Shown here in pieces: positions 930 through 21,848 of a DNA stretch of 64,000 nucleotides. The DNA comes from Spirochaetia bacterium (GTDB lineage: Bacteria > Spirochaetota > Spirochaetia > WTKD01 > G963693115): the NCBI GenBank assembly GCA_965226065.1, contig OZ245332.1:98206-162205 (forward strand), written 5' to 3'. The position numbers and the translations under genes are program-made. The notes under the pieces are model-generated. The model did not search any database and was not told where the DNA came from. It saw only the letters and a program-made list of their open reading frames with translations. Positions within the stretch are counted from its first letter, which is position 1; every line of letters starts with the position of its first letter.

Positions 930-1145
930 ATGAACATTGAAGCATCACTAAACACCAATTTTCACAAAGCGAAAAGTAACAAAAAAGACGAATTCTACAC
1001 GCAACTTTACGACATTGAAGAAGAGCTTAAACACTACAAGGAGCATTTCAAAGGCAAGGTCGTGTACTGCAACTGCGGAGTCATGGGCGTACCGATTACC
1101 TTTCTCGACAAGTACAACCCCGACCAGTTTGAGTTGTTGGGATAG
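930..1145 (+). pseudogene. N-terminal fragment of an EcoRI-like N6-adenine DNA methyltransferase (truncated remnant)
   Basis: The 71-aa ORF reads HKAKSNKKDEFYTQLYDIEEELKHYKEHFKGKVVYCNCG. From memory this resembles the N-terminus of M.EcoRI-family adenine methylases (HKAKK..DEFYTQ...VYCNCD). The ORF stops after ~70 aa, where a full enzyme is >300 aa. Confidence 0.4.
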
Positions 1146-1262
1146 ATAGACCTTTGATTAAAGAACGCACAGGAAAAGTTAGTCGCTTTAGGATTAATGA
1201 TAAGGAAATCTACGCAAGAATCATCATCAAGAACAAGAGACTCTCTTCTTAGGAGGCACAAC

Positions 1263-3812
1263 ATGAGCCAAGACACCATACAATTTCACCTTAGAAGAGC
1301 AGGGCGTTATTACAAAGAAGGCAAATACGAAAAGGCGATAAAAACGCTTACATTGATTATCAATTCAGACGCACCAGATGACATCAAGGCAGATGTATAC
1401 AACAACAGAGGACTTGCCAAATACGACTTACAGAGGTACGAGGAAGCGATAGAGGATTATGACAAGGCGATAGAACTACAGTCCGACCATGTTGAGACAT
1501 ACAACAACTTCACCAAGCTTGATCGCAAAGATCCCGCCGAACTACAGCTCAACTATGCAAATGCATACAACAACAGAGGCGCTGCCAAAGAAAAATTACA
1601 GAGATACGAAGAGGCGATAGAAGATTACGACAAGGCGATAAAACTACAGCCCAACCATGCCGCAGCATATAACAACAGAGGCAGTGCCAAAGGAGAATTA
1701 CAGAGATACGAGGAAGCGATAGAAGATTACGACAAGGCGATAAAACGAAAGCATGACTATGCAGATGCATACTACAACAGAGGCAATGCCAAAGGAAAAT
1801 TACAGAGACACGAGGAAGCGATAGAAGATTACGACAAAGCGATAGAGCTACAGCTTGACCATGTTGAGGCATACTACAATAGAGGCAGTGCCAAAGGAAA
1901 ATTACAGAGATACGAGGAAGCGATAGAGGATTACGACAAGGCGATAAAATTACAGCCCAACCATGCCGCAGCATATAACAACAGAGGCAATGCCAAAAAC
2001 AGCTTACAGAGATACGAGGAAGCGATAGAGGATTATGACAAGGCGATAGAAAGACAGCCCAACCTTGCAGATGCATATAGCAACAGAGGCGCTACCAAAG
2101 ACAAATTACAGAGATACGAAGAAGCGATAGAGGATTACGACAAGGCGATAGAAAGACAGCCCGACTATGCCGAGGCATGGTACAACTGTATAAAAAATGC
2201 TACAAAAGAGTTAGAAGAAAGACAGCCCGACTATGCCGAGGCATGGTACAACAGAGGCAATGCCAAACGTAGCTTGGGGAGGTACGAAGAGGCGATAGCG
2301 GACTACGACAAGGCGATAGAACGAAAGCATGACTATGCAGATGCATACAACAATAGAGGCGCTACCAAAGACAAATTACAGAGATACGAGGAAGCGATAG
2401 AAGATTACGACAAGGCGATAGAACGAAAGCATGACTATGCAGATGCATACAACAACAGAGGACTTGCCAAAGCCAAATTACAGAGATACGAAGAGGTGAT
2501 AGAAGATTATGATAAGGCGATAGAACTACAGCCCGAAGATGCCAATGCATGGTTCAACAGAGGCAATGCCAAAAACAACTTACAGAGATACGAGGAAGCG
2601 ATAGCGGATTACGACAAGGCGATAGAGTTACAGCCTAAGCTTGCCGAGGCATACAACAACAGAGGCGTTGCCAAATACGACTTACAGAGGTACGAAGAAG
2701 CGATAGAAGATTACGACAAGGCGATAGAGCTACAATCCGACCATGCAGGTGCATACCGCAACAGAGGCAATGCCAAATACGACTTACAGAGATACGAAGA
2801 GGCGATAGCGGATTACGACAAGGCGATAGAGCTACAACCCGACCATGCAGGGGCATACTACAACAGAGGCGTTGCCAAAGCCAAATTACAGAGATATGAA
2901 GAGGCGATAGCGGATTACGACAAGGCGATAGAGCTACAGCCTAATCTTGCCAATGCATGGTTCAATAGAGGCAATGCCAAAGGCAGCTTACAGAGACACG
3001 AAGAGGCGATAGCGGATTTTGACACAGCGATAGAATTACAGCCCGACTATGCTAAGGTATACCACAACAGAGGCGTTGCCAAACATAGCTTGGGGAGATA
3101 CGAGGAAGCGATAAGGGATTACTACAAGGCGATAGAGCTACAGTGTGAGAACGCAAAGAAAGACTTTAAAACAATAACATGCTATAAGTTCATCCCCATT
3201 AGCAAAAACAGCATAAACATGCTGGTAAAAAACATGGTGTATTTTAGCGATGTTCCGTCCCTGAACGACCCGCTGGAATGCCCTCTTTTGTTAACAATAT
3301 TTCAGGGCGTATTTGAAGGCAAACATGAACCGCGTATTTTCTCACTCGTGGTTCCACCTCCCAATGACAAACCAGATGAGTATGGGATACATGAGGTCGT
3401 ACGCAACACACTCCTTTTCAGCCACTATGCAGATGCGCACAAGGGAATATGCATAGGGTACGAAATAGCTCCAGAGTTTCTGCAACAAGGCACGATGTTC
3501 TATACACCTGTGCAATATAGCAAGAATACAATACCAGATAGCCTGGAGAAGCTCTTTGCCATTAAGGATGAGCTATGGAAATATGAGCATGAGGGGCGTT
3601 TTGTAGCCTTTGGCACAGAGAAACACTATCAATTGCAAGGGAATTCACGCATTACAAGGCTTATCTTTGGGCTTAAAACACCTGGAAAAGACAAGACTTT
3701 GTTGTCGAAACTTCTACAAGGTAAAGGAATAGGCTTATATGATACCTACAGTGATGAATATAGTTCTTTTGATCTCAAGTTTAAGGTTCGCAAACAATCT
3801 CATATCTCATAA
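1263..3812 (+). CDS. TPR-repeat protein with C-terminal DUF2971 domain (paralog 1, roughly 18-19 TPR units)
   Basis: AGGAGG RBS 7 nt upstream of ATG 1263; the ORF-track start at 1197 is probably too early. The N-terminus MSQDTIQFHLRRAGRYYKEGKYEKAIKTL is homologous to MTQGIE..NRATRYRKEGKYEEAI of paralogs 2 and 3. Long array of 34-aa units (AYNNRGNAKxxLQRYEEAIEDYDKAIELQP). The C-terminal ~230 aa carry DUF2971 hallmarks: LVKNMVYFSDVPSLNDPLECPL, LLFSHYADAHKGICIGYEI and LWKYEHEGRFVAF. The last codons (KQSHIS) derive from a copy of the TM2 gene 5' end. Confidence 0.85.
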   Translation: MSQDTIQFHLRRAGRYYKEGKYEKAIKTLTLIINSDAPDDIKADVYNNRGLAKYDLQRYEEAIEDYDKAIELQSDHVETYNNFTKLDRKDPAELQLNYANAYNNRGAAKEKLQRYEEAIEDYDKAIKLQPNHAAAYNNRGSAKGELQRYEEAIEDYDKAIKRKHDYADAYYNRGNAKGKLQRHEEAIEDYDKAIELQLDHVEAYYNRGSAKGKLQRYEEAIEDYDKAIKLQPNHAAAYNNRGNAKNSLQRYEEAIEDYDKAIERQPNLADAYSNRGATKDKLQRYEEAIEDYDKAIERQPDYAEAWYNCIKNATKELEERQPDYAEAWYNRGNAKRSLGRYEEAIADYDKAIERKHDYADAYNNRGATKDKLQRYEEAIEDYDKAIERKHDYADAYNNRGLAKAKLQRYEEVIEDYDKAIELQPEDANAWFNRGNAKNNLQRYEEAIADYDKAIELQPKLAEAYNNRGVAKYDLQRYEEAIEDYDKAIELQSDHAGAYRNRGNAKYDLQRYEEAIADYDKAIELQPDHAGAYYNRGVAKAKLQRYEEAIADYDKAIELQPNLANAWFNRGNAKGSLQRHEEAIADFDTAIELQPDYAKVYHNRGVAKHSLGRYEEAIRDYYKAIELQCENAKKDFKTITCYKFIPISKNSINMLVKNMVYFSDVPSLNDPLECPLLLTIFQGVFEGKHEPRIFSLVVPPPNDKPDEYGIHEVVRNTLLFSHYADAHKGICIGYEIAPEFLQQGTMFYTPVQYSKNTIPDSLEKLFAIKDELWKYEHEGRFVAFGTEKHYQLQGNSRITRLIFGLKTPGKDKTLLSKLLQGKGIGLYDTYSDEYSSFDLKFKVRKQSHIS

Positions 3813-3972
3813 AAGCGAAGTTTCAACAAGAAGTCAATTAGCGATTTTTTCGGTGCACATAGGTTGTATGCAGGTAAGATAGGCTCAAGTATTATAATGA
3901 TACTCTTAATAATTGTTGCAGCAGGGTTTTATACCGCTATCATTATTTTTTACAGATGCGGTGCAATCAGAT
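3796..3972 (+). repeat. Degenerate second copy of the 5' part of the TM2 gene (matches 597..790), fused to the 3' end of TPR-DUF2971 paralog 1
   Basis: 3796..3846 is identical to 597..647 (caatctcatatctcataaaagcgaagtttcaacaagaagtcaattagcga). The rest matches 660..790 with a ~20-bp deletion and point differences. Confidence 0.7.
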
Positions 3973-3997
3973 GCATAAACAAGAAGATACAGAAAGA

Positions 3998-4030
3998 TGA
4001 AAAAAGCCACACAAACATGTGGCTTTGAGT
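3998..4030 (-). terminator. Rho-independent terminator downstream of the minus-strand Mrr-like gene
   Basis: Stem agccaca (4005..4011), loop caaaca, stem tgtggct (4018..4024). On the minus strand the stem is followed by TTTTTTCATC (complement of 3998..4004). Confidence 0.5.
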
Positions 4031-4074
4031 TTAAAGAATTTTCACAGCTCCTTAAGCGGATATTTCAAATGTCG

Positions 4075-5004
4075 TTAAAAAAGTAATTCAGGAGCGTGAT
4101 TTATGACAAATAGCGCCAAATCTTCATGAGCTAATAAATCAATAGGCTTTCCAAACTCATCAGATTTTTCATCAATCTCTTTTTCTATCGTCTCTGTGCT
4201 TTCGGCAGTGGTAGCTATTATTCCTCCATGTGCATCGTAATGCTCTATTGCGCCTACAATCTGTTCGACTGCATGTGTATTCTCTATTCTTCCTTCATAA
4301 GATTTTACTTGCACAACGATCAAATGTGGATATTCTATATTATTCGCTATTTTGATGTTCGTCTCTATAATTAGATCTGCCCCATGATCCGTACCCCAGC
4401 CTACTTCATTAAGTGTTACATCTTTTACATCGGGAACTTTTTTAAATACCTTATATAAAAATTCCTCAAGGTTTTTACTCTTATTCATTTGTTGAATCTT
4501 TACAGCGATATTGCTTAGCATGGGGGTCAGTTCTTTTTTGAGATGATGTATTTCTCTCGTCTCTCCGCCTTCAAGTTGTATCTTATTACTTTTTAAGTTC
4601 TCTATAGATTCATGAAATGCGTCTTCCGCACGTATTCTTTGAAATCTTTGTCGAGGTTTCAGATTAACTGTGGGTAGAACATTTGCATTCTTTCTATCAA
4701 ACTCTATCACCGTACTGGTATCAACTTCAAAGTAATGCGGAAAGGCACTAGTTTTCTCTCCAAATTTATATTCTGACGTAATTCTCGCAGCGGTACAGTG
4801 TCCTTTCCGTGGTGAATTGATAAACACGATCCAATCATCTTTATGTACTTGACGAAGACGTTCAAAATATTGATATGGTTCTTTTGGGATTCCTTCCTCC
4901 CCAGCATGTATTCGTACTGTTCCTTCATGCATCCAATCTTTGATTTGTTCTCTAATTTCGTCCTTGCATCCTTTCCATGATGCCCCAACTGACCATACTG
5001 CCAT
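4075..5004 (-). CDS. Restriction endonuclease-like protein with C-terminal Mrr-cat (PD-(D/E)xK) domain and an N-terminal domain of unknown type
   Basis: The C-terminal GWGTDHGADLIIETN....HLIVVQVKSYEG fits the Mrr catalytic-core pattern (DGGIDG...D..I...IQAK). The ~130-aa N-terminal region was not recognised. Confidence 0.5.
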   Translation of the reverse strand: MAVWSVGASWKGCKDEIREQIKDWMHEGTVRIHAGEEGIPKEPYQYFERLRQVHKDDWIVFINSPRKGHCTAARITSEYKFGEKTSAFPHYFEVDTSTVIEFDRKNANVLPTVNLKPRQRFQRIRAEDAFHESIENLKSNKIQLEGGETREIHHLKKELTPMLSNIAVKIQQMNKSKNLEEFLYKVFKKVPDVKDVTLNEVGWGTDHGADLIIETNIKIANNIEYPHLIVVQVKSYEGRIENTHAVEQIVGAIEHYDAHGGIIATTAESTETIEKEIDEKSDEFGKPIDLLAHEDLALFVINHAPELLF

Positions 5005-5253
5005 AATTCTTACCTCCTACATATAACATATATAAATTATTTGGAAATCAATTTTCAACAAAGGGTTAAATCTAAAATCCATACCATGCACTATAGCAAA
5101 ACCTAGCGTCTTATGCAAGTACACAAGGTCTAATATCCCTTTACTTAATACATAATGTCATAGATACATTGTGTCGACACTTGAGATACGCTCACAAGTT
5201 TTCTCGGGACATGTAGCGTCCTACAACAGAGACATGTATATGATCACGCAAGA

Positions 5254-6501
5254 TTACATTGTATCTCGCGTGGCTCCGAAACTCAGCAAGTACTCACGAT
5301 AGTACTCGTACTGTGCTCTGCGTGCCTTAAGTTCTGCAGGCAAGCCGATGCTTATGTCGTTCACTAAGGCGTCAAACTTGTCTAAAAGAGACACAATGCG
5401 TTCTTGCACAGGTAGGGGAGGTATGGGGATGGTGAGTTTAGCAACATCTTTTGAATAAACATGAGGAACTCCGCTTCCGCTTTTAAGATTGTGTAATACA
5501 TTTTGACAGTTTTTTAAAAAATGAAAAGCATATTTTGTAAGCAATAAACATTTATTTGTTTTTATTGAAAAGGCATCTGATACAAAAATTTCGGTCGTCC
5601 AATAACTAACAAAACCCGCATACGCACCGCTTCCCGCAATTACAATTGTTTCGCCATCTCTATTTCCTTTGTTATGATAATAGGCCGCTTTTCTGCCACC
5701 TGCAATAACAGGGATGTCACCACTTGAAATATTTTTTTTAGTTATGGATGTTCCTCGCTTAAGTTCCGCAACTTCTCCCAACGCCCTCCACTCCACGTCA
5801 TCGCCAAAGGTGAGAAGCTTCTCACGGTAGTGCTTATACTGCGCTACGCGCGCCTCAAGCTCCGCCTCAAGCTCCGCCTCAAGCTCCGCCTCAAGCTCCG
5901 CCTCAAGCTCCGCCTCAAGCTCCGCCTCAAGCTCCGTGAATGTGTCTAGCACGCCTACAATGTACTCTTGCACAGGTAGGGGTGGTATGGGGATTAGATA
6001 TTTTTTTATATCGTTAAAATTAACTGATGAAAATGTTGCACCAGAAGCTTTACTGGCAAGTACTTGTCCATGTATTTGCATAATATGAAAAAGATATTTG
6101 CTTATAACTTTTTTAGTAGCTTGTATTCCACATAAACCTCTGCCTATACAAATTTTTCTATCAGTATAATTTATTGCCCCTACAGGTGCTCGAACACTCA
6201 TTATTACGTTATGAGCTTCTATAATTTTTGTTATTTTAGAAGTATGCTTTTGAGAGTTAGCAACAACATAGTTAGTAAAATGGGATTTTCCTTGATGAAA
6301 TTCTAAATCATTTTTGTTTGATGAAACAAACTTACCTTCTGGAGATTGTCCCATTATAAGATTAAAGTAATTTATATCCCCCAGCGCTCTATACTCCACC
6401 CCGTGCGGGCAGTGCTCGGCCATCAGCCGTTCCAGCGTATTCATAGTGCACTCATGATGGTTCGCCAATAATCCCGCATAGTCCCATGATATCATGCACA
6501 T
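5254..6501 (-). CDS. hsdS: Type I restriction-modification specificity subunit HsdS (copy 1; TRD-A + TRD-B), with 7 tandem ELEA repeats in the central spacer
   Basis: Two-TRD architecture. Conserved central and C-terminal segments: IPIPPLPVQE...LD.FTELEA...RVAQYKHYREKLLTF and IPIPPLPVQERIVSLLDKFDALVNDISIGLPAELKARRAQYEYYREYLLSF. Seven 12-bp units (cctcaagctccg) at 5853..5936 encode (ELEA)7. No hsdM or hsdR in the window. The start may really be at the MNTL... methionine rather than MCMIS.... Confidence 0.85.
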   Translation of the reverse strand: MCMISWDYAGLLANHHECTMNTLERLMAEHCPHGVEYRALGDINYFNLIMGQSPEGKFVSSNKNDLEFHQGKSHFTNYVVANSQKHTSKITKIIEAHNVIMSVRAPVGAINYTDRKICIGRGLCGIQATKKVISKYLFHIMQIHGQVLASKASGATFSSVNFNDIKKYLIPIPPLPVQEYIVGVLDTFTELEAELEAELEAELEAELEAELEAELEARVAQYKHYREKLLTFGDDVEWRALGEVAELKRGTSITKKNISSGDIPVIAGGRKAAYYHNKGNRDGETIVIAGSGAYAGFVSYWTTEIFVSDAFSIKTNKCLLLTKYAFHFLKNCQNVLHNLKSGSGVPHVYSKDVAKLTIPIPPLPVQERIVSLLDKFDALVNDISIGLPAELKARRAQYEYYREYLLSFGATRDTM

Positions 6502-6708
6502 GTGTTGGAAGAGACATAGACATGTGTTGAATTGTACACTATTTATATATAACTCCCTTAATGTATCACAATGGTCTTAAATGAATTCCTGCATATTTAA
6601 TAATTTGAGGTTTACAAATGGATTTACATGTATCACGGCAACCTGTCTTTGACCTTTTAAAGTACATTCATCGGTCTATGGGCTATACTCAAACGTAAGG
6701 AGCATCGC
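6502..6708. promoter_or_regulatory. Conserved divergent intergenic leader between hsdS and the TPR-DUF2971 gene (copy 1 of a ~185-bp near-identical element; copy 2 at 13408..13592; partial third copy 15870..15911)
   Basis: 6540..6708 is near-identical to 13420..13592. It ends in ...ggctatactcaaac(g/a)taaggagcatcgcATG, a TATACT -10-like hexamer followed by an AAGGAG RBS. It presumably holds divergent promoters for both genes. Confidence 0.45.
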
Positions 6709-8661
6709 ATGACTCAAGGCATAGAATTGAACTTCAATAGAGCGACACGATATCGCAAAGAAGGCAAATATGAAGAGGCGATAGAAACGCTTACATTGAT
6801 TATCAAATCAGACGCACCAGATGACATCAAGGCAGGTGCATACTACAATAGAGGCGTTGCCAAACACGACTTAGAGAGATACGAGGAAGCGATAAGGGAT
6901 TACGACAAGGCGATAGAGCTACAGCCTAAGCTTGCCGAGGCATACAACAACAGAGGACTTGCCAAACACGACTTAGAGAGATACGAGGAAGCGATAGCGG
7001 ATTACGACAAGGCGATAGAACTACAGCCTAAGTTTACCGAGGCATGGTACAACAGAGGACTTGCCAAATACGCCTTACAGAGGTACGAGGAAGCGATAGC
7101 GGATTACGACAAGGCGATAGAACTACAGCCTAAGCTTGCCGGGGCATACAACAACAGAGGACTTGCCAAACACGACTTAGAGAGATACGAGGAAGCGATA
7201 GCGGATTACGACAAGGCGATAGAGCTACAGCCTAAGCTTGCCGAGGCATACAACAACAGAGGCAATGCCAAACGTAGCTTGGGGAGATACGAGGAAGCGA
7301 TAAGGGATTTCGACAAGGCGATAGAGCTACAGCCCGACTATGCTAAGGCATACAACAACAGAGGACTTGCCAAACACGACTTAGAGAGATACGAGGAAGC
7401 GATAGCGGATTACGACAAGGCGATAGAACTACAGCCTAAGCTTACCGAGGCATGGTACAACAGAGGACTTGCCAAATACGCCTTACAGAGGTACGAGGAA
7501 GCGATAGCGGATTACGACAAGGCGATAGAACTACAGCCTAAGCTTGCCGGGGCATACAACAACAGAGGACTTGCCAAACACGACTTAGAGAGATACGAGG
7601 AAGCGATAGCGGATTACGACAAGGCGATAGAGCTACAGCCTAAGCTTGCCGAGGCATACAACAACAGAGGCAATGCCAAACGTAGCTTGGGGAGATACGA
7701 GGAAGCGATAAGGGATTTCGACAAGGCGATAGAGCTACAGCCCGACTATGCTAAGGCATACAACAACAGAGGACTTGCCAAACACGACTTAGAGAGATAC
7801 GAGGAAGCGATAGCGGATTACGACAAGGCGATAGAGCTACAGCCTAAGCTTGCCGAGGCATACTACAATAGAGGCAATGCCAAATACAAATTAAAAAGAT
7901 ATGAAGAGGCGAAAGACGACCATCATCAGGCAATTAAGCTGCAATGTGAGAATGCACAAGAAAAATATAAGCCCATAACAAGCTATAAGTTCAGACCCAT
8001 CAATAAAAACACCATAAGCCTTTTGGTACAAGGTGAATTATATTTTAGCGATATTCCATCCCTGAACGACCCGCTGGAATGCCCCCTGATGCACTTCATG
8101 TATAAAGATATATTCAAAGATGCCAATAAGCCGCACATTTTGTCACTGGTTGTCCCCTCTCATCAACATACAAAAAACAAAGACGGAATATATACGGATC
8201 TGGTAAACAACACCTTGCTCTTCAGCCATTATGCTGATTCACACAAGGGCATATGCATAGAATACGAAATACAAGAAACACTATTAAAACAAGAACAAGC
8301 ACGCATATTCTACACCTCTGTACAATACAGCACAAACACAGAAGCACAAAATATTGAAAAACTCTTTGCCATTAAGGATGAAAAATGGAAATACGAGAAC
8401 GAAGCGCGCTTTATAGCCTTTGATGAGCAACAAGAGCCAACACGCCCGGGCAACATATATAAAGGTGGTGTGCACATTAAGAAAATAATATTCGGACTTG
8501 AAACGCCTAAGGAAGACAAAAAGCTATTGTACACCCTCTTGCACAAAGAAAACAAAGAACATTTACAAGGCATAAAGTTTTTTAACACAGAAAGCAAACC
8601 CAAAAGCTTTTTCACCCTGAAGTTTACGCCGTATACACCGCCAGACCAGGTTGGTTCATAA
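6709..8661 (+). CDS. TPR-repeat protein with C-terminal DUF2971 domain (paralog 2, roughly 11-12 TPR units; contains a perfect ~408-bp 4-TPR tandem duplication)
   Basis: Same unit structure as paralog 1. The C-terminal domain reads LLVQGELYFSDIPSLNDPLECPL, LLFSHYADSHKGICIEYEI and KWKYENEARFIAF. The 6937..7344 segment is repeated at 7345..7752 almost base for base. Confidence 0.85.
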   Translation: MTQGIELNFNRATRYRKEGKYEEAIETLTLIIKSDAPDDIKAGAYYNRGVAKHDLERYEEAIRDYDKAIELQPKLAEAYNNRGLAKHDLERYEEAIADYDKAIELQPKFTEAWYNRGLAKYALQRYEEAIADYDKAIELQPKLAGAYNNRGLAKHDLERYEEAIADYDKAIELQPKLAEAYNNRGNAKRSLGRYEEAIRDFDKAIELQPDYAKAYNNRGLAKHDLERYEEAIADYDKAIELQPKLTEAWYNRGLAKYALQRYEEAIADYDKAIELQPKLAGAYNNRGLAKHDLERYEEAIADYDKAIELQPKLAEAYNNRGNAKRSLGRYEEAIRDFDKAIELQPDYAKAYNNRGLAKHDLERYEEAIADYDKAIELQPKLAEAYYNRGNAKYKLKRYEEAKDDHHQAIKLQCENAQEKYKPITSYKFRPINKNTISLLVQGELYFSDIPSLNDPLECPLMHFMYKDIFKDANKPHILSLVVPSHQHTKNKDGIYTDLVNNTLLFSHYADSHKGICIEYEIQETLLKQEQARIFYTSVQYSTNTEAQNIEKLFAIKDEKWKYENEARFIAFDEQQEPTRPGNIYKGGVHIKKIIFGLETPKEDKKLLYTLLHKENKEHLQGIKFFNTESKPKSFFTLKFTPYTPPDQVGS

Positions 8662-8860
8662 ACTCTACATGTGTTAAAAGAGACACGGAGCGATGCCAAC
8701 AGAGAGACGGAAACGCCCCCCACCCGACATGTCCATGTCTTTGGTATCTCTGGTAGCCATCAAAACCTGACTTTACACAAAAAAACCCCTGATGACTTGA
8801 TTATGTAAAAGGCCGTGTTATGATAACATTCAGTAACATTTAATCAACAAGGAGTAAACC

Positions 8861-9776
8861 ATGATGATATATAAGAAAGCAATAGCCCTTCTGTCCCTTC
8901 TTTTGACCTTAATTATCGCAGCATGCGAAAACCCCCAACCAACATAGAGAAAAACGGTAAAGCCGACACGGATACAGACTCCGAAGGAGAATCTGCAGGC
9001 GAAACAGGCAACGAATCCGAAGACGATGGCGAAGACGCAGCCCCCGCCGCATATAGTTTTGCATTTGACACGGCAGCCACAAGGTTGCATTCACCTCAGG
9101 TGGCACATACACCCGTGCCGTCGTCGAGACAAACAAGCCCGCAGGCGACGCACGGGCTACTACATATACCTCAAGCGAGGGCAAGATAGCCACGGTCAAC
9201 GAAGCAGGTGTCGTAACCTTTGTGACCCAGGGCACGGTGACCATCACGGCCACCAAGACAGCGGAACCTGGCCATGAAAAAGCTACTGCCAGCTATGAAC
9301 TTACCATTACCAAAATGAAGCCCGCAAATAAACAGGCACTTGCCAATGAAATAACCCGAGCGATGGATGCACACGGCAACAAAGTCAACCTCAACTACAT
9401 AGACGTCTCTGATATCACCGACATGAGCTATCTTTTTAGTAGCCATGCATTCGGTTATGGGCGTCAGGCATTCAATGGCGACATATCAGAGTGGAAGGTG
9501 GCAAAGGTGACCAATATGTTCGCTACGTTTGAAGGTGCTACTGCGTTCGATCAGAATATCTCAAAGTGGGATGTGTCAGGGGTTGAAGATATGGTTTTTA
9601 TGTTTAAGGATGCAACCTCGTTCAAGCAGAACCTCAATGCATGGGGGAACAGAATAAACAACGCTTTAAAAGCTGATAAATGGAGAAATACAAAAATTAT
9701 GTTTACAGGCAGCGGTCTTGCGGACAATCTCCCTTCATGGTGTGCAAGTGTGCAAGCGTGTAGAAATGGACAATAA
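8861..9776 (+). pseudogene. BspA-like (DUF285) surface lipoprotein gene disrupted by two frameshifts
   Basis: AAGGAG RBS then MMIYKKAIALLSLLLTLIIAACENPQPT-stop. The frame continues in +1 after a C5 tract (8932..8936) as ...AAYSFAFDTAATR. A second shift occurs near 9075..9085 into the 9222..9776 frame (VAFTSGGTYTRAVVETNKPAGD...TYTSSEGKIATVNEAGVVTFV...). That frame aligns with the 18585..19640 protein and carries DUF285 units (NLNYIDVSDITDMSYLF..., ISKWDVSGVEDMVFMF). Confidence 0.6.
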
Positions 9777-9787
9777 AGGAGGAACAC

Positions 9788-9915
9788 ATGGCTATAGAAT
9801 ATAAAGTCATTCCACGCAAGATATTGGCGGGAGAAGACAAAGGCAAAGTAAAATACTACGCCACAACAAGCAACACCGGACGAACAGACCTTGATGACTT
9901 TATAAATATTATTCA
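9788..9915 (+). pseudogene. Possible truncated HU-like (Bacteroidetes-type histone-like) DNA-binding protein N-terminus
   Basis: AAGGAGG RBS, then MAIEYKVIPRKILAGEDKGKVKYYATTSNTGRTDLDDFINI resembles the N-terminus of Bacteroides-type HU-family proteins. The rest of the ORF overlaps the opposite-strand ImmA gene and looks non-coding. Confidence 0.25.
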
Positions 9916-10398
9916 GATTCCAAGTCGTATAGACATTGCTCCAAATGAAACATCGAATTCATTTGCTAAAATATGGGCAAGTTCTGCATGGAATCCCAGG
10001 TCAAAACATTCTATATAATGGTTGGCTCTCTCTTTAACCTTGTGAAGGGGCATTATTATATCAGCTGCCAGCTTATTAGCTTGAATTTCCTGATTGTTGC
10101 TTAGCAAGCTTCTGTATAATGGATCGTCAAATATCCCATCTCCTATGCTTTCCTTATGCAAGAAAAAATGGGCAAGCTCATGGGCTAGTGTAAATCTCCT
10201 CCGTTGAGGGGAATGCTTTAAATTTATAGTAATTCGGTAATTGTCGTTTACCTTCACTATCTTGCCAGACATCTCTCCCATATATTCATTTTCAACATCA
10301 ATATTATTATCCTTTGCAATACTTTCAAGATTAACAGGGTAGGAGTCAAGATATTTTTCTTTCAAACTTTTTGCGATATCCAGTCTATTGCTGTCCAT
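9913..10398 (-). CDS. ImmA/IrrE-family (DUF955) zinc metallopeptidase
   Basis: HExxH in LAHELAHFFLH, plus the downstream LAAD.IMP context typical of ImmA/IrrE anti-repressor proteases. Confidence 0.7.
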   Translation of the reverse strand: MDSNRLDIAKSLKEKYLDSYPVNLESIAKDNNIDVENEYMGEMSGKIVKVNDNYRITINLKHSPQRRRFTLAHELAHFFLHKESIGDGIFDDPLYRSLLSNNQEIQANKLAADIIMPLHKVKERANHYIECFDLGFHAELAHILANEFDVSFGAMSIRLGI

Positions 10399-10401
10399 TT
10401 G

Positions 10402-10845
10402 TCACTCCTTATTCACTTTTTTAGCATCATCAACATCAGAAGTACTTAATGCGTAAATATCGCCCGCCTTCATTCTTTCGTTTGTCTTTTTCATTACTTC
10501 CTCTACTATGGAATCTGTTTTATTTTTAATAAAGTCATCAGCTTTCCTATTTATGATTTCAGTTACTTTTGAATTTATTTCTTGCCAACCGATGATAGCC
10601 AGGATTCCGCCACCCATTGTTATGGTCGCTATAATTATTCCCAGTAAAGATATTTGAAAACTTAAAGCGTCAACATTACTGAGGTTTTCTGAATTCGCAA
10701 ACTTGAAAAACCCAAATACAATAAGTAGCAAGAAAAAAGCTCCAATCACAACAAGAAAAAATGTTAAAATGAGTATTAAAACTCCAGATTTTGGTTTACC
10801 TTCAGCTTTTTTGACTTTTTCTTTATTCCCCGGAGAACCAACCAC
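10402..10845 (-). CDS. Small membrane protein (2 predicted TM helices), co-directional and 3 nt upstream of the ImmA-like gene
   Basis: Two long hydrophobic stretches (VLILILTFFLVVIGAFFLLLIVFGFF and LLGIIIATITMGGGILAIIGW). No HTH motif recognised. Confidence 0.45.
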   Translation of the reverse strand: MVGSPGNKEKVKKAEGKPKSGVLILILTFFLVVIGAFFLLLIVFGFFKFANSENLSNVDALSFQISLLGIIIATITMGGGILAIIGWQEINSKVTEIINRKADDFIKNKTDSIVEEVMKKTNERMKAGDIYALSTSDVDDAKKVNKE

Positions 10846-10904
10846 TTATCTATTATGACACAGGTATCTAAATATAACAACAATATGCTGTATAAAATCT
10901 TTTT

Positions 10905-11394
10905 CCTCCATGAACCGCGTATTTTCTCACTCGTGGTTCCACCTCCCAATGACAAACCAGATGAGCATGGGATACATGAGGTCGTACGCAACACACTTCT
11001 TTTCAGCCACTATGCAGATGCGCACAAGGGAATATGCATAGGGTACGAAATAGCTCCAGAGTTTCTGCAACAAGGCACGATGTTCTATACACCTGTGCAA
11101 TATAGCAAGAATACAAGACCAGATAGCCTGGAGAAGCTCTTTGCCATTAAGGATGAGCTATGGAAATATGAGCATGAGGGGCGTTTTGTAGCCTTTGGCA
11201 CAGAGAAACACTATCAATTGCAAGGGAATTCACGCATTACAAGGCTTATCTTTGGGCTTAAAACACCTGAGGAAGACAAGACTTTGTTGTCGAAACTTCT
11301 ACAAGGCAAAGGAATAGACTTATATGATACCTACAGTGATGAATATAGTTCTTTTGATCTCAAGTTTAGGGAACACGGGGCAACATCTTTTTGA
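10905..11394 (+). pseudogene. Truncated copy of the DUF2971 C-terminal domain (about 97% identical to residues of paralog 1; no TPR region and no N-terminal NDPxE segment)
   Basis: 10911..11375 encodes EPRIFSLVVPPPNDKPDEHGIHEVVRNTLLFSHYADAHKGICIGYEI...LWKYEHEGRFVAF.... This is near-identical to 3334..3790, but with a different 3' end and unrelated upstream codons. Confidence 0.7.
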
Positions 11395-11502
11395 CAAAGG
11401 CTTTGCAGGCAATTGGTTTGAGCCCCACCAATGGGCCTATGGTAGACGATGAACATTTATTCTATGCAGCTTGGACTCTTAGTATCTTGATCACGCCCTA
11501 GC

Positions 11503-11847
11503 TTAGTCTTTCCAACTGTACAGCGTCCCATCATCGCGTATCGCCACTGTGTGATCCCCACATGTCGCAACAGCATTCCATTTTTCGATCCCTACTTTGA
11601 CGGGACTAGTCTGATGCTTCATATGCCATAGTGTCCCATCATCGCGTATCGCCACTGTGTGATCCCCACCTGCCGCAACAGCCTTCCATCTTCCGATCCC
11701 TACCATGTTGGGACTAGTCTGATAATTACGCCCTTTCCAAATACACAGCGTCCCATCATCGCGTATTGCCACTGTGTGATCCCTACCTATCGCAACAGCC
11801 TTCCATCTTCCGATCCCTACCTTGTCGGGACTAGTCTGATAATTCAT
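11503..11847 (-). pseudogene. RCC1-repeat (beta-propeller blade) protein fragment
   Basis: Three near-identical blades: GIGRWKAVA.G.DHTVAIRDDGTL..WK (RCC1-like GxxHTVAL..DGxLxxWG). Only 114 aa with no upstream continuation, so likely a remnant. Confidence 0.45.
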
Positions 11848-12180
11848 ATGCCATCTCCTTTATAAAATAAAATTTGTGAAAGCTGCTTAATATACAAGCA
11901 ACATTTTCAATTATATAAAGTATAGAAAACAAAACACAATAATACAATAGGTAAAATTAAAATGTGATGCAAGCTTGTCCAAGAACCCCATTCCTAAGCT
12001 TCTGCCTACCATACGGAGATGCCCTTATCAGCATACCGTTCTAAGCAATACGCAATATGCCTTTGAACTTTAGGGCACAAGTCCAAGAAGTTTACTAAAT
12101 AAATTTTTAGAGACACCTAGTGATAGCCAACAGCGACACATAGCGTCCTACAACAGAGACATGTATATGATCACGCAAGA

Positions 12181-13407
12181 TTACATTGTATTTCGCGTGG
12201 CTTCGAAACTAAGCAAGTACTCACGATAGTACTCGTACTGTGCTCTGCGTGCCTTAAGTTCTGCAGGCAAGCCGATGCTTATGTCGTTCACTAAGGCGTC
12301 AAACTTGTCTAAAAGAGACACAATGCGTTCTTGCTCTGCAAGGGGCGGTATGGGGATAGAAAACTTATTTATTATTGAAGAATTTATATTATTGATAGTA
12401 GTGCTACAGATACTTTTTTTAAGATATTGCAAGAAATTACCGCTACCTAACAAATAAAAAATAAATTGAGAATTAATACTTTTATTACATCTTATAACTG
12501 CCATAAAGCCACCAAAGTAGTAATCTATATTGTTATTAATATATGCAACTTTTCCTACATGGGCTTTACTTCCACTTGCTACGCTCATAAGAATATCACC
12601 TTTTTTTAACTTTTGCGTATCTTTAATTTTGGTATCTTTAGACACAACTTTAACATCTTCAAAGTTTAATCTATTATTTAATATGTCAATATTATTCGCT
12701 CTTAATATTTTGAAACCACTGTTTAAAGTTGTTTCCTGCGATTTATTGTAAGTAACCCCTCGCACATATTTAGCAATTTCTCCTAATTCTCTATATTCCA
12801 CGTCATGGCCAAAGGTGAGCAGCTTCTCACGGTAGTACTTATACTGCGCTACGCGCGCCTCAAGCTCCGCCTCAAGCTCCGTAAAGCTGTCGAGTATCTT
12901 TACGATTGCTTCTTGCACAGGTAGGGGTGGTATGGGTATGGGCAGTTTGGCAACATCTTTTGAATAAACATGAGGAACTCCGCTTCCGCTTTTAAGATTG
13001 TGTAATACATTTTGACAGTTTTTTAAAAAATGAAAAGCATATTTTGTAAGCAATAAATATTTATTTGTTTTTATTGAAAAGGCATCTGATACAAAAATTT
13101 CGGTCGTCCAATAACTAACAAAACCCGCATACGCACCGCTTCCCGCAATTACAATTGTTTCGCCATCTCTATTTCCTTTGTTATGATAATAGGCCGCTTT
13201 TCTGCCACCTGCAATAACAGGGATGTCACCACTTGAAATATTTTTTTTAGTTATGGATGTTCCCCGCTTAAGTTCCGCAACTTCTCCCAATTCTCTATAC
13301 TCCACCCCGTGCGGGCAGTGCTCGGACATCAGCCGTTTCAGCGTATTCATAGTGCACTCATGATGGTTCGCCAATAATCCCGCATAGTCCCATGATATCA
13401 TGCACAT
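12181..13407 (-). CDS. hsdS: Type I R-M specificity subunit HsdS (copy 2; TRD-B + TRD-C), 2 ELEA repeats in the central spacer
   Basis: Identical N- and C-terminal conserved regions to copy 1. Its first TRD (GEVAELKRGTSITKKNISSGDIPVIAGG...AKLPIPIPPLPVQE) is the same sequence that forms the second TRD of copy 1; its second TRD is unique. Only two cctcaagctccg units are present. Confidence 0.85.
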   Translation of the reverse strand: MCMISWDYAGLLANHHECTMNTLKRLMSEHCPHGVEYRELGEVAELKRGTSITKKNISSGDIPVIAGGRKAAYYHNKGNRDGETIVIAGSGAYAGFVSYWTTEIFVSDAFSIKTNKYLLLTKYAFHFLKNCQNVLHNLKSGSGVPHVYSKDVAKLPIPIPPLPVQEAIVKILDSFTELEAELEARVAQYKYYREKLLTFGHDVEYRELGEIAKYVRGVTYNKSQETTLNSGFKILRANNIDILNNRLNFEDVKVVSKDTKIKDTQKLKKGDILMSVASGSKAHVGKVAYINNNIDYYFGGFMAVIRCNKSINSQFIFYLLGSGNFLQYLKKSICSTTINNINSSIINKFSIPIPPLAEQERIVSLLDKFDALVNDISIGLPAELKARRAQYEYYREYLLSFEATRNTM

Positions 13408-13592
13408 GTGTTGAATTGTACACTATTTATATATGATTCCCTTAATGTATCACAATGGTCTTAAATGAATTCCTGCATATTTAATAATTTGAGGTTTACA
13501 AATGGATTTACATGTATCACGGCAACCTGTCTTTGACCTTTTAAAGTACATTCATCGGTCTATGGGCTATACTCAAACATAAGGAGCATCGC
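13408..13592. promoter_or_regulatory. Second copy of the conserved hsdS/TPR divergent leader
   Basis: Near-identical to 6540..6708. Confidence 0.45.
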
Positions 13593-15512
13593 ATGACTCA
13601 AGGCATAGAATCGTACTTCAATAGAGCGACACGATATTACAAAGAAGGCAAGTATGAAGAGGCGATAAAAACGCTTACATTGATTATCAAATCAGACGCA
13701 CCAGATGACATCAAGGTAGGTGCGTACAACAACAGAGGACTTACCAAAGACAGCTTGGGGAGCTACGAGGAAGCGATAAGGGATTACGACAAGGCGATAG
13801 AGCTACAGCCCGACTATGCCGCAGCATACCACAACAGAGGACTTGCCAAAAACAGCTTACAGAGATACGAAGAAGCGATAAAAGATTACGACAAGGCGAT
13901 AGAGCTACAGCCCGACTATGCCAATGCATGGTTCAACAGAGGCGTTACTAAATACAACTTAAGAAGATACGAGGAAGTGATAGAGGATTACGACAAGGGG
14001 ATAGAACTACAGCCCGACGATGCTAAGGCATACCACAACAGAGGTGTTGCTAAATACAACTTAAAAAGATACGAGGAAGCGATAGAGGATTACGACAAGG
14101 CGATAGAGCTACAGCCTAAGCTTGCCGAGACATACAACAACAGAGGCACTGCCAAATACAACTTACAGAGATACGAGGAAGCGATAGAAGATTACGACAA
14201 GGCGATAGAGCTACAGCCTAAGCTTGCCAAGGCATACTACAACAGAGGTAATGCGTACCATGAGCAAGCACAATACAACAAAGCAATAGTAGACTACACG
14301 CAGGTCATTAAACTGCCCACAGATGATAACACCAAAGCAGGAGCGTATGCTGGCAGAGGTACTGCATACGCCAAGCAAAAAGAATACAACGAAGCAATAA
14401 ATGATTTCAATGCTGCCCTACAGTACGGCATATCCGATGAAGTTATAAAAACATATCGCAAGCAAGAAGAAAAGGGCATTGCTAAAAACATATTAGAAGT
14501 ATTTGAAAGCACGGCGCAGATATTAAACCAACTAAAAGTACCTAAAGATTCTAAAGACACAGAATATCTTTCGCATACTACTAGATTGCCCGTGTTTATT
14601 CAACTCCTTGTTCCTGCACATAAGAACGAAAAACAACCACTAGGGATCTTTCGTATGTACCACATTGCCTACACCAACGACCCAACTGAAGGCAGGGTCT
14701 TGTTCAATAATATGAATATACCCCTTGATGAAGCAACACAGGGTAGGGACATACCTTATGTGATGGTAACAAGCTTTTGTGGAGGTAAAAACCCACAAGC
14801 ATTAGACACCTTGCCCATATGGAAGATGTACGGCGATGATGCACAAGGCATAGGCCTGTTATTTAAGAAAAGCGACATAGCCTACGATAAAAAAGGACAT
14901 GCCATGCCACATTATTTTGAATCTACTATGCTTAGCGACACTGGAAATACCAATAAGAAAGTCACACATGCGACATCACAACCCTTGCCAAATGAAGCAG
15001 ATGAAAAGAATGTTACACCCCCACAGATACTCTACAAGGTCTACTATGTGAAGAGTGATGAAACAGATGAAACAAAGAGTGATGAAATATATGGAAAGTT
15101 AAAAGACATAAAAACAAATCTTGAGACGATACAGAAACAACAAGATATACACAACAAAACCCTAGAGTTGCTAAACGGTATACGGTATCTCATAAAAGAC
15201 ATAAAATATGCCTACGAAGAAGAATACCGCCTCTTGTGCTTTGCAAATAAGGAACAAGTCCCAAAGATACTACAAAGCCAAGACATCACAGAACAAACTG
15301 AAAGCACCAAAGACACGAATACGGGTAGTCTACCACGTATACGTATCTACATAGAGACAGAAATATTAAAAAAACTCTGCAAGGTAATAACCGCCCCTAA
15401 AGTAAATAAGGAACAAGCCTTAAACATACAGTATCTTTTGCATTTCTATAAGGAAGAATTGCCAAAGCTGGAAGAAGAACCCCTATATACCAGCAATATA
15501 CCCTACCGCTAA
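13593..15512 (+). CDS. TPR-repeat protein (roughly 7 units) with a divergent, insertion-containing DUF2971-like C-terminal domain (paralog 3)
   Basis: N-terminus MTQGIESYFNRATRYYKEGKYEEAI plus TPR units as in paralogs 1 and 2. The C-terminal domain has GIFRMYHIAYTNDPTEGRVLF (NDPxE motif) and KYAYEEEYRLLCF (W/YxYExE-R motif) with extra inserted sequence. Confidence 0.8.
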   Translation: MTQGIESYFNRATRYYKEGKYEEAIKTLTLIIKSDAPDDIKVGAYNNRGLTKDSLGSYEEAIRDYDKAIELQPDYAAAYHNRGLAKNSLQRYEEAIKDYDKAIELQPDYANAWFNRGVTKYNLRRYEEVIEDYDKGIELQPDDAKAYHNRGVAKYNLKRYEEAIEDYDKAIELQPKLAETYNNRGTAKYNLQRYEEAIEDYDKAIELQPKLAKAYYNRGNAYHEQAQYNKAIVDYTQVIKLPTDDNTKAGAYAGRGTAYAKQKEYNEAINDFNAALQYGISDEVIKTYRKQEEKGIAKNILEVFESTAQILNQLKVPKDSKDTEYLSHTTRLPVFIQLLVPAHKNEKQPLGIFRMYHIAYTNDPTEGRVLFNNMNIPLDEATQGRDIPYVMVTSFCGGKNPQALDTLPIWKMYGDDAQGIGLLFKKSDIAYDKKGHAMPHYFESTMLSDTGNTNKKVTHATSQPLPNEADEKNVTPPQILYKVYYVKSDETDETKSDEIYGKLKDIKTNLETIQKQQDIHNKTLELLNGIRYLIKDIKYAYEEEYRLLCFANKEQVPKILQSQDITEQTESTKDTNTGSLPRIRIYIETEILKKLCKVITAPKVNKEQALNIQYLLHFYKEELPKLEEEPLYTSNIPYR

Positions 15513-15911
15513 GTAGGAAATCCCGTACCCATATGCATTACCACAGACACAAGAATCACACAGAAGACTTGTTATACTTGTTACAAAGGAAGTGCTCATG
15601 AAACAACAAGCAAACCCGAAAGCCTTTTTACCCTAAAGTTCAGGCCAGGTTCGTTCAAAAAAAAAGTTCTAATTATTAGCATCAGTGTCGGAAGACATGA
15701 GCTATCTCTTTTATAACACCACTGTATCTACCTTTGGGGGATGTTTGAATTCTCTTTGGCAAGACCTGCGAATCACTTAAAAAGAATATGCATGTCTCTT
15801 TGGGATTTATACGATCGTTTCGTGTACCTTTGTGTCATAGAGGCATGACGCCTCAGCCTTGTTTAGCTATTCATCGGTTTATCGGCTATACTCAAACGTA
15901 AGGAGCATCAC

Positions 15912-16163
15912 ATGACTCAAGGCATAGAATCGTACTTCAATAGAGCGACACGATATTACAAAGAAGGCAAGTATGAAGAGGCGATAGCGAATTATGACAA
16001 AGCGATAGAACTACAGCCCGAAGATGCCGATGCATGGTTCAACAAAGGAACAAACAGCATTATGATTATGATAGAACGACAAAGCATGGGGAAACCGAAG
16101 GTGCGTCTTTGTTATTGTATTTATCAAAATAGTCAAGAAATAAGCAGTATAGAATATTTATAA
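15912..16163 (+). pseudogene. N-terminal fragment (leader + first TPR) of a fourth TPR-DUF2971 family gene
   Basis: MTQGIESYFNRATRYYKEGKYEEAIANYDKAIELQPEDADAWFNKG, then unrelated sequence and a stop. It is preceded by a partial copy of the conserved leader (15870..15911). Confidence 0.55.
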
Positions 16164-16183
16164 GGTTAAGAAGTAATGGAATT

Positions 16184-16816
16184 ATGAAGTGTATTTTAAT
16201 GTTTTGTTATGCGGGTCTCATTGTGCTTCTTGCTTCTTGTAGATCTGTGGCAACTTATACAGATAGTCCAGATGGTCAATTTTTTTATTCAGTGAGTAAG
16301 CAGGAAGAAACGAAATATGGTGATATTTTTGTTGTTATTGAAAAATATCGTTATTATCCGGTCTTTTTTAGTCAAGTAGAGCGTATGTTTTATGAAATTA
16401 ATCAAGCGAATCCTTTGGATGGCTATCATGCAAATACTTATAATTTTATACAATATAAGGGTTTTCGAGGCTCACAAATTGAATGTAAAATCAACGTAAG
16501 TCAAGTGGGACTTATAATTACTTACACACTGCCTAAAATTAGTGCGGATGTAAGGGATAAAAAAATCTTAAAAATTTGGAATAGATATTATTCCGCTTTA
16601 CTAAAGCATGAGCAAAATCATGCTGAGTTTGGTCGCATTGCAGCCAAAAGAATATACGATGTGTTGAGAAAAAACTTAAATAAGCCATGCGAGCAAGAAA
16701 TGCAAAAAGAAATTGATGAAATTTTTGCGTGGCATGCTAAACAACATAAAGAATATGATGAAAAAACGAATCATGGGAAAAAAGAGGATGCGTATTTGCC
16801 ATTTTATTTACCTTAA
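16184..16816 (+). CDS. Secreted lipoprotein with HExxH-type motif (HEQNH), DUF922/COG5661-like predicted Zn-peptidase
   Basis: Signal peptide and lipobox (LLASCRS). LLKHEQNHAEFGRIAA resembles the HEQGH motif I recall for DUF922 proteins. The gene sits between duplicated copies of the 3' end of paralog 3. Confidence 0.5.
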   Translation: MKCILMFCYAGLIVLLASCRSVATYTDSPDGQFFYSVSKQEETKYGDIFVVIEKYRYYPVFFSQVERMFYEINQANPLDGYHANTYNFIQYKGFRGSQIECKINVSQVGLIITYTLPKISADVRDKKILKIWNRYYSALLKHEQNHAEFGRIAAKRIYDVLRKNLNKPCEQEMQKEIDEIFAWHAKQHKEYDEKTNHGKKEDAYLPFYLP

Positions 16817-16839
16817 AATGAGAAGAAAGACATCACAGA

Positions 16840-17300
16840 ACAAACTGAAAGCACCAAAGACACGAATTATACGTATCTACATAGAGACAGAAATATTAAA
16901 AAAACTCTGCAAGGTAATAACCGCCCCTAAAGTAAATAAGGAACAAGCCTTAAACATACAGTATCTTTTGCATTTCTATAAGGAAGAAGAACCCCTATAT
17001 ACCAGCAATATACCCTACCGCTAAGTAGGAAATCCCGTACCCATATGCATTACCACAGACACAAGAATCACACAGAAGACTTGTTATACTTGTTACAAAA
17101 GGAAGTGCTCATGAAACAACAAGTAAACCCGAAAGCCTTTTTACCCTAAAGTTCAGGCCAAGTTCGTTCAAAAACAAAAAGTTCTAATTATTAGCATCAG
17201 TGTCGGAAGACATGAGCTATCTCTTTTATAACACCACTGTATCTACCTTTGGGGAATGTTTGAATTCTCTTTGGTAAGACCTGCGAATCACTTAAAAAGA
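16840..17300 (+). repeat. Degenerate duplicate of the 3' end and downstream region of TPR paralog 3 (matches ~15290..15800)
   Basis: 16856..17015 encodes ...RIIRIYIETEILKKLCKVITAPKVNKEQALNIQYLLHFYKEE..EPLYTSNIPYR, the paralog 3 C-terminus with small deletions. 17016..17300 repeats 15513..15800 (gtaggaaatcccgtacccatatgcattaccacagacacaag...). Confidence 0.7.
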
Positions 17301-17494
17301 ATATACATGTCTCTTCTCTAAGGTCTCTACAGTAACTAGTATCAGTGTTAGAAGACGCTAGATATCTTATGAAAGAAATGCGCTCTTAGGATATACTAGA
17401 GGTGTTGATTCCTCTAAGGTAGAAATCTACAGAACCATGAAATAGACAAAAGCTTGTATAGGATAAGTGAATCATCACGTAAGGAAAAGAAACG

Positions 17495-19640: not shown

Positions 19641-19911
19641 AGTTTTTTCCTTCTTTAATTTACTACTTAACTAATTTACTACTTATACTATACGCCGGGG
19701 CTAAGGCAATTAAGTTTTTTAATAACAATAAATATCTTTTATATTATATCATTTCTTTCTTGCACTGGTTGCGTCTATGTTATATGTCGCGGTGCTTCTT
19801 TTGTATTTTGCGTTTTCTTGAAGTTCTGCAGTAATAGTATACACTCTGAGGCTGGCATAATATCTGATTGTAACTTCCCCGCTACTGCTGTTAATGGTAA
19901 CACCGAAGTTC

Positions 19912-20467: not shown

Positions 20468-20498
20468 AATAATTTCTCCTTATTTTGTTTTTTATGTA

Positions 20499-21830: not shown

Positions 21831-21848
21831 AATAATACTCTTCTTTTT

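Follow-up and report, generated by a model that had tools for sequence, protein, structure and literature searches.

DUF2971 (Pfam PF11185) is among the largest uncharacterised defence-linked protein families, with Aristaios as the sole validated member. This protein of 316 aa, encoded on the Lactococcus plasmid pUCCL641_199, was validated as a single-gene system of the Abi (abortive infection) type, and its AlphaFold model resembles an ADP-ribosyltransferase (PMC11381338); a later review lists it as interfering with phage transcription (PMC13064643). A survey of ADP-ribosyltransferases assigned DUF2971 bioinformatically to the H-Y-E clade near DarT and reported for the family an ExE motif, strict conservation of a Tyr and poor conservation of a His (motif I) (PMC12522546). 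PADLOC covers such domains with the candidate system PDC-S31, a name that we encountered in no paper during our literature search. Here we describe a 64,000-nt stretch of a Spirochaetia bacterium (contig OZ245332.1, positions 98,206 to 162,205; hereafter the window) in which three paralogous genes, P1, P2 and P3, encode an N-terminal array of tetratricopeptide repeats (TPRs) fused to a C-terminal DUF2971 domain, most likely a fused-sensor variant of a one-gene antiviral system. The original prediction for this DNA, made from sequence alone, held that DUF2971 has no assigned function, which is outdated in view of the validation of Aristaios, the ADP-ribosyltransferase assignment and the PDC-S31 listing. 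The effector domain, an Aristaios/PDC-S31/DarT-like DUF2971, is already known, while novelty lies in the TPR-fused architecture, in the multiple, fast diversifying copies that one spirochaete lineage carries, and in the repeated coupling of this architecture to DNA methyltransferases.

All three open reading frames (ORFs) are intact on the forward strand, with P1 at 1263-3812 (849 aa), P2 at 6709-8661 (650 aa) and P3 at 13593-15512 (639 aa). P1 most likely starts at the ATG at 1263, which has an AGGAGG 7 nt upstream and is a better start than 1197. The Pfam TPR_1 profile matched with E-values of 3e-162 (P1), 1.5e-118 (P2) and 6e-70 (P3). Cutting the proteins into 34-residue units in the canonical TPR register yielded about 19 units for P1 (16 canonical 34-aa units, an N-terminal cap and two 22-aa partial units, about 1389-3152), 12 for P2 (11 units and a cap, 6832-7953) and 8 for P3 (7 units and a cap, 13716-14438). 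The three paralogues and their arrays of about 19, 12 and 7 units were therefore located correctly, and counted essentially correctly, in the original prediction. Neither a signal peptide nor a hydrophobic N-terminus was found in the sequences of P1, P2 and P3, and no nucleoside triphosphatase (NTPase) domain of the NACHT or NB-ARC type appeared in any Pfam scan of them; the TPR array runs straight into DUF2971.

The number of repeats is labile, as had been proposed. A four-unit block of 408 nt in P2 (6934-7341) is tandemly repeated at 7342-7749 with 99.3% identity, and P0001, the P1 orthologue of a related genome, contains 4 TPR units versus about 19 in P1 while the C-terminal domains of both are 91% identical. 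Across 34 units, scaffold positions are nearly invariant and R7, G8 and D23 never vary. On the other hand, the pairwise non-synonymous difference amounts to 0.68-0.85 at TPR positions 2, 5, 9, 12, 13, 15, 22, 33 and 34, to 0.50 at position 32 and to at most 0.31 at all remaining positions. According to Magliery and Regan, positions 2, 5, 9, 12, 13, 33 and 34 constitute the concave, ligand-contacting face of TPRs (PMC1261162). As all of them belong to the variable positions, the arrays can be regarded as near-ideal scaffolds each presenting a different binding surface, and the concave face differs from unit to unit as well as between paralogues.

On sequence grounds, the C-terminal domains of P1 (3123-3809), P2 (7921-8658) and P3 (about 14400-15509, divergent and insertion-bearing) are members of the DUF2971 family. 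The isolated domains scored 22.2 (P1), 26.5 (P2) and 24.5 bits (P3) and a truncated P1-type copy at 10855-11394 scored 22.4 bits, all passing the curated Pfam gathering threshold of 22 bits; in scans of the full-length proteins at an E-value of 0.01, DUF2971 was listed for P3 (23.5 bits) and went unlisted for P1 and P2. Whereas the TPR call is overwhelming, the DUF2971 call is narrow by Pfam, and stronger support came from other searches. The hidden Markov models (HMMs) of PADLOC PDC-S31 matched P1 (7.9e-26), P2 (3.7e-29) and the truncated copy (7.6e-24), with models PDLC04990, 04991 and 04994 giving 1e-13 to 4e-29 against these three domains and most of the model covered, and PDLC04992 matched P3 weakly (3.7e-4). 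A tblastn search of the P2 domain against plasmids retrieved 28 records (best E-value 6e-14, coverage up to 99%), 25 of which are annotated as ‘DUF2971 domain-containing protein’.

The similarity of the first two domains and the divergence of the third were likewise foreseen: P1 and P2 are 54% identical in this region, phmmer with the P2 domain does not detect P3, and hhalign places P3 with the P1/P2 family (88%, E 3e-6), all motifs being in register across two large insertions. The P3-type family is small, with four homologues. The motifs read NDPLE (3264-3278), SHYAD (3420-3434) and WKYEHEGR (3576-3599) in P1, NDPLE (8065-8079), SHYAD (8224-8238) and WKYENEAR (8386-8409) in P2, and NDPTE (14676-14690), KMYGD (14823-14837) and YAYEEEYR (15207-15230) in P3. 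In a 21-sequence alignment reaching canonical Pfam-positive DUF2971 members, the N-D of the NDP motif, the Tyr of SHYAD, the G.C of GIC and W.YE.E.R are invariant. Both the Tyr (Y508 in P2) and the ExE (E563/E565 in P2) are present in all three paralogues, including P3, a pattern that agrees with the published family description (PMC12522546).

An AlphaFold2 model of the P2 domain (pLDDT, the predicted local distance difference test, 85.2; pTM, the predicted template modelling score, 0.85) displays the core fold of ADP-ribosyltransferases, with DarT as the best match among solved structures. DarT and Tpt1, the closest fold matches of the model, both act on nucleic acids. Of the structural search suggested in the original prediction, this likeness is what emerged, while Foldseek against the PDB gave no significant match for the P2 model and Foldseek against viral structures gave weak matches only, to uncharacterised proteins. 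At the sequence level, we found no link from the DUF2971 domain to solved structures: no sequence or profile similarity to genuine DarT was detectable (hhalign probability 0.1%), and the DarT Pfam family (PF14487) had no match in P1-P3. The P2 domain is DarT-like in its predicted fold.

The close relatives of P1-P3 all originate from metagenome-assembled genomes of ‘Spirochaetia bacterium’ and lie in islands rich in restriction-modification (R-M) genes, except for the loci L002 and L007/L086. The best database match to the window proteins, which are not themselves in the searched database, is 49-61% identical. Among the first 84 loci examined, the TPR fusion was restricted to Spirochaetia, where one ORF of 1273-1282 aa comprises 28 TPR units. 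An exhaustive profile search returned 33,179 DUF2971 family clusters at 50% identity, and at least 26 of 165 related proteins examined (the best 150 profile-search representatives plus earlier matches) contain TPR units, more distant members included. No TPR-DUF2971 or TPR-ADP-ribosyltransferase defence protein was described in the literature that we searched. The fusion is thus not unique to the window, and recurs yet is undescribed; the earlier statement that no such system has been characterised stands, with the reservation that the effector domain was already known in defence. Relatives combine TPR arrays of this kind with an A-type DUF2971, a B-type DUF2971 or a two-helix membrane domain, and L085 encodes array and DUF2971 domain in two separate genes that overlap by ATGA. 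Such a combination of a modular sensor with swappable effectors is typical of defence proteins.

One of these relatives is found inside a type I R-M locus (L001: hsdR, three hsdS, M78, DUF4411, DUF4917 and hsdM), where a divergent hsdS lies directly upstream of the TPR-DUF2971 gene as in the window. In L004, hsdS, Mrr and GmrSD are located near the TPR-DUF2971 gene, in L089 two N6_N4 methylases are placed upstream of it with ThsB-TIR nearby, and L003, L005, L085 and L087 are arrays of type III Mod genes with ThsB-TIR, GmrSD, HicAB, a Res helicase and DUF4917. The arrays of L005 (7005-17232), L085 (6577-21158) and L087 (8434-21140) contain type III Mod paralogues, three or four in number, and every Mod gene is in translational coupling with its own kind of downstream repeat protein (TPR-DUF2971, TPR-only, TPR with two transmembrane helices, or pentapeptide repeats). 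As a rule, a single Res-like helicase gene stands at one end of the array. We know of no described system with such an organisation.

Outside this group, a census of 72 DUF2971 loci from other phyla assigned the 134 nearest ORFs to 145 Pfam families and revealed no conserved partner gene. Matches to PADLOC models for defence or candidate defence genes (type IIG R-M, AbiEii, HsdR, HmaC, mad3, PDC-S06) were obtained for about 9 of these 134 ORFs, a raw count that would fit a mobile, stand-alone defence gene and is no strong evidence on its own.

In the window itself, the genes occupy a variable island, the first 23 kb, between a lipoprotein gene and a housekeeping block (gap, pgk, lysA, carB, clpA, ftsK, tig). 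Profile scans identified two hsdS genes, an Mrr, a DUF262-HNH nuclease, a CapP-like peptidase and a methylase remnant as defence-type genes of this island. We found no homologue of hsdM, hsdR, mod, res, TIR or DUF4917 in the window when searching with the proteins of the relatives, so both hsdS genes are orphans within it. No tRNA or integrase was found at the island borders, the sole tRNA of the window being located at 62582.

Taken together, we lean towards P1-P3 being cytoplasmic, single-polypeptide antiphage proteins that unite a sensor with a DarT-like, ADP-ribosyltransferase-like effector. In this scenario, the N-terminal TPR superhelix would serve as the specificity module and bind either a phage protein or a host complex perturbed by phage. 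Binding would lift the inhibition of the C-terminal DUF2971 domain, predicted from its model to be an NAD+-dependent ADP-ribosyltransferase-like toxin with a fold related to DarT. The freed effector might then ADP-ribosylate a nucleic acid or a core host or phage factor, and infection would be aborted. We infer this enzymatic activity, its target, the activation by ligand binding and the resulting phage protection from the domain homology, the motifs, the variation of the concave face and the island context in the window and its relatives. Diversification may proceed by gene duplication, by expansion and contraction of TPR units, by swapping between two DUF2971 subtypes and by decay into fragments, and effector exchange in the relatives would also include a membrane-spanning C-terminus.

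Several observations weigh against this interpretation. The antiphage role is putative and derives from homology and context, the Pfam DUF2971 scores barely exceed the threshold, and the P3 domain model, built from a 5-sequence alignment, is unusable (pLDDT 37). No adjacent DarG-like antitoxin is present to hold self-toxicity in check. Variable concave faces are common to TPRs in general, so this feature alone does not prove immune sensing. The neighbourhood survey called for in the original prediction, which mostly returned R-M islands for close relatives, also showed L002 and L007/L086 placed between housekeeping genes with no obvious island, and the neighbours in the 72 loci from other phyla are highly heterogeneous with few PADLOC matches. 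The likeness to sensor-effector proteins of antiphage systems that had been noted is a reasonable analogy given the defence-island setting, whereas the novelty of the effector domain was overstated.

Alternatively, TPR-DUF2971 proteins might work together with DNA methyltransferases or specificity subunits instead of alone, a possible but rather unlikely arrangement that could take two forms. As a guard, the protein would stay latent while bound to the R-M complex, as PrrC does with EcoprrI, and fire when a phage anti-restriction protein disturbs the complex; as a restriction arm, it would itself ADP-ribosylate unmodified DNA. Methyltransferase genes directly upstream on the same strand are indeed a recurrent feature of the relatives. 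The Mod stop codon overlaps the TPR gene start as ATGA or GTGA twice in L005 and also in L085, where Mod, TPR and DUF2971 form a coupled three-gene set; Mod genes flank both TPR-DUF2971 genes of L087; two methylases precede the gene in L089; and a type IIG Eco57I-like methylase ends 15 nt upstream of the TPR-DUF2971 gene in L088, which stems from a different organism (29% GC). Outside Spirochaetia, three Bacteroidota loci have a stand-alone DUF2971 gene behind a type IIG enzyme gene of the same strand (L027, L040 with a 3-nt gap, L071). Within the window, P1 has a methylase remnant 117 nt upstream, and P2 and P3, like the L001 orthologue, each adjoin a divergent hsdS. That DarT and Tpt1, the closest fold matches of the model, act on nucleic acids also speaks for such a partnership.

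Other findings speak for autonomy. P1, P2 and P3 lack an intact adjacent methyltransferase and the window lacks hsdM, hsdR, mod and res, so the window genes, if functional, act without a neighbouring partner, and autonomous action is favoured. Moreover, the same Mod genes also precede TPR-only, TPR-membrane and pentapeptide genes, which fits equally well with R-M loci collecting defence cargo, a tendency described as guilt-by-embedding (bioRxiv 10.1101/2024.01.29.577857), and Aristaios functions as a single gene. An apparent fusion of methylase, target-recognition domain, TPR and DUF2971 in a single chain of 1456 aa (P0032, L088 5803-10173) turned out to be a gene-calling artefact in which three TGA stops are read as Trp; all three TGA codons are at ORF ends and the seven genuine Trp codons are TGG. 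The public gene call of P0032 sits on a contig with 29% GC and 1.19x coverage. The methyltransferase linkage may reflect functional coupling or merely the gathering of defence cargo in R-M loci. That TPR-DUF2971 proteins form a new class of R-M partner, guarding the R-M machinery or restricting unmodified DNA by ADP-ribosylation, seems more doubtful still; in this case, the hypervariable concave face of the TPRs would co-evolve with specificity subunits or phage inhibitors.

The island also harbours broken copies of the gene, which raise the question whether the family has a current role at all. The truncated copy at 10855-11394 (plus strand), extending a fragment originally placed at 10905-11394, corresponds, at 98-99% DNA identity, to the distal two-thirds of the P1 domain (98% between 10909-11371 and 3324-3786) and lacks the N-terminal third including the NDP motif. 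A second fragment on the plus strand (15869-16163, with the shared 5’ leader at 15869-15911 and the ORF at 15912-16163) comprises the leader and cap common to P2 and P3 plus one TPR unit and diverges thereafter. To these two copies, both of which had been recognised and proved real, we add a third, previously missed remnant at 16827-17024, the last ~60 residues of a P3-type domain. About 290 nt 3’ of it are duplicated as well, and the whole stretch (16827-17315, plus strand) matches 15280-15800 at about 92% overall; leaving two deletions aside, the two sequences are near-identical. The N-terminal fragment and this remnant flank a DUF922 gene (16184-16816) and therefore look, from their sequences, like a disrupted fourth copy with its middle replaced. 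Three intact copies are hence accompanied by three broken ones, and duplications and deletions have turned the island into a patchwork. Another sign of such local events is that a TM2-domain gene (576-926), situated before the methylase remnant, recurs directly downstream of P1 as a partial copy with 79% identity (3791-3969).

With half of the six copies being fragments in such a patchwork, the DUF2971 domain could be non-enzymatic, e.g. a binding module, or belong to a decaying selfish toxin family, in line with the marginal Pfam scores, the unconserved His of motif I and the literature consulted (including PMC12522546, PMC11381338 and PMC13064643), which contains no demonstrated enzymatic activity for any DUF2971 protein. 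We nevertheless consider this improbable: three long ORFs (639-849 aa) have remained intact despite highly repetitive DNA, the Tyr, the ExE and about ten more positions are invariant among homologues that are 22-52% identical, and a TPR scaffold that is conserved while its surface varies is a signature of selection, not of decay. Very improbable is a host-directed effector of a host-associated spirochaete whose TPRs bind an animal host protein for modification by the ADP-ribosyltransferase: the genome does encode numerous surface lipoproteins carrying DUF285/PARCEL/Big_2 repeats, as host-associated bacteria typically do, and ~18% of DUF2971 proteins, including Legionella lpg1268, are predicted secreted effectors (PMC12522546), but P1-P3 have no signal peptide or hydrophobic N-terminus, their genes are situated among R-M and nuclease genes rather than secretion genes, their relatives are coupled to DNA methyltransferases and their nearest HMM matches are a phage-defence candidate set.

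The neighbours of P1-P3 in the island agree with the gene calls made originally. The methylase remnant (930-1145, plus strand, same as P1) encodes 71 aa of an internally deleted EcoRI-type adenine DNA methyltransferase, and a gene for an Mrr_cat restriction-endonuclease-like protein (4075-5004, minus strand) is convergent with P1. An ImmA/IrrE M78 peptidase gene (9913-10398, minus strand; CapP-like, PADLOC 5e-28) is preceded by a gene for a predicted membrane protein of 147 aa (10402-10845, minus strand), the pair spanning 9913-10845. A similar pair of a membrane protein (~146 aa) and an M78 peptidase is present in the related locus L002 (16595-17600), likewise near the TPR-DUF2971 gene. Downstream of the P3-type remnant, a GmrSD_N (DUF262)-HNH nuclease (17495-18580, plus strand) gives a full-length match (2e-143) to the PADLOC REase_II model PDLC03418.

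The first hsdS gene (5254-6501, minus strand) is divergent from P2 and the second (12181-13407, minus strand) from P3. Their conserved segments are 95-97% identical and their target-recognition domains differ. The 5’ end of the first hsdS, the adjoining intergenic stretch and the initial ~650 nt of P2 (6387-7364) recur as a duplicate at 13293-14248 (88% identity). Further, the central conserved region of the first hsdS contains a perfect 12-nt tandem repeat, CGCCTCAAGCTC x 7.2 (5851-5936, minus strand), encoding a 4-residue repeat; Tandem Repeats Finder reported no such array for the second hsdS. For classical type IC enzymes, the number of such repeat copies in hsdS determines how long the spacer of the recognition site is. 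Both genes could be orphans or a reserve of specificity genes, recombining with an hsd locus that lies elsewhere.

Genes of the surface-lipoprotein type are a further constituent of the island. Three of them with DUF285/PARCEL repeats and a Big_2 domain are encoded on the minus strand at 18585-22739, including PARCEL repeats with a 75-nt period in about 10 copies (20601-21330), and pieces of DUF285/PARCEL-type lipoprotein genes are scattered through the island (9048-9439, 9222-9776). Another lipoprotein gene (minus strand), running off the left end of the window, features a (TA)11 tract at 271-292 between its Shine-Dalgarno/ATG (308-306) and the lipobox LIAAC of the signal peptide, and as sequenced this ATG is out of frame with the gene body by one TA unit. 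The tract resembles a phase-variation switch of the slipped-strand kind that is set to OFF, unless it was misassembled.

Paralogues that share the same effector and carry different, delimited TPR surfaces provide a ready-made system for finding activators of DUF2971, and the pairing with methyltransferases is a testable lead as to whether the domain acts on DNA and cooperates with restriction-modification. If the conservative reading of a fused-sensor variant alone is true, the proteins constitute a useful new architecture for defence-annotation tools and not a new principle.

Compared with the described systems, P1-P3 share with Aristaios the PF11185 domain, a predicted ADP-ribosyltransferase-like fold, the organisation as one gene and the lack of an obvious antitoxin, a likeness at the family level. 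Aristaios, however, has 316 aa, no TPR array and a location on a Firmicute plasmid, whereas P1-P3 have 639-849 aa, 8-19 TPR units N-terminal to the domain and a location on a spirochaete chromosome; no Lactococcus plasmid was among the tblastn matches of the P2 domain or among the listed matches of a canonical DUF2971 protein. The HMMs of PDC-S31 match the C-terminal domain of P1, P2 and the truncated copy, and that of P3 weakly, and with 208-273 positions they cover only this domain of P1-P3. DarT of DarTG has no detectable sequence similarity to P1-P3, which differ from DarTG in their larger helical inserts, the fused TPR array and the lack of an adjacent macrodomain DarG, no macrodomain gene being found beside P1, P2 or P3. 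A canonical DarT-macrodomain pair does occur in L086 (14869-16474), 4 kb downstream of the TPR-DUF2971 gene, and L007, the same site as L086, has two ORFs of 167 and 371 aa at 14628-16233 that are alike by size and order. PrrC/RloC effectors are anticodon nucleases with an ATPase domain, and PrrC physically associates with R-M proteins; their genes are located inside or beside R-M operons, as are TPR-DUF2971 genes (L001, L005, L085, L087, L088). DSR2 (SIR2 and a helical-repeat sensor), CapRel(SJ46) and the TPR sensors of the Avs/STAND type combine sensor and toxic effector in one polypeptide. By analogy, P1-P3 would resemble them in joining sensor and effector in one chain, in their variable sensor surfaces and in their swappable effectors, and would differ from them in the effector fold and in having no STAND NTPase between sensor and effector.

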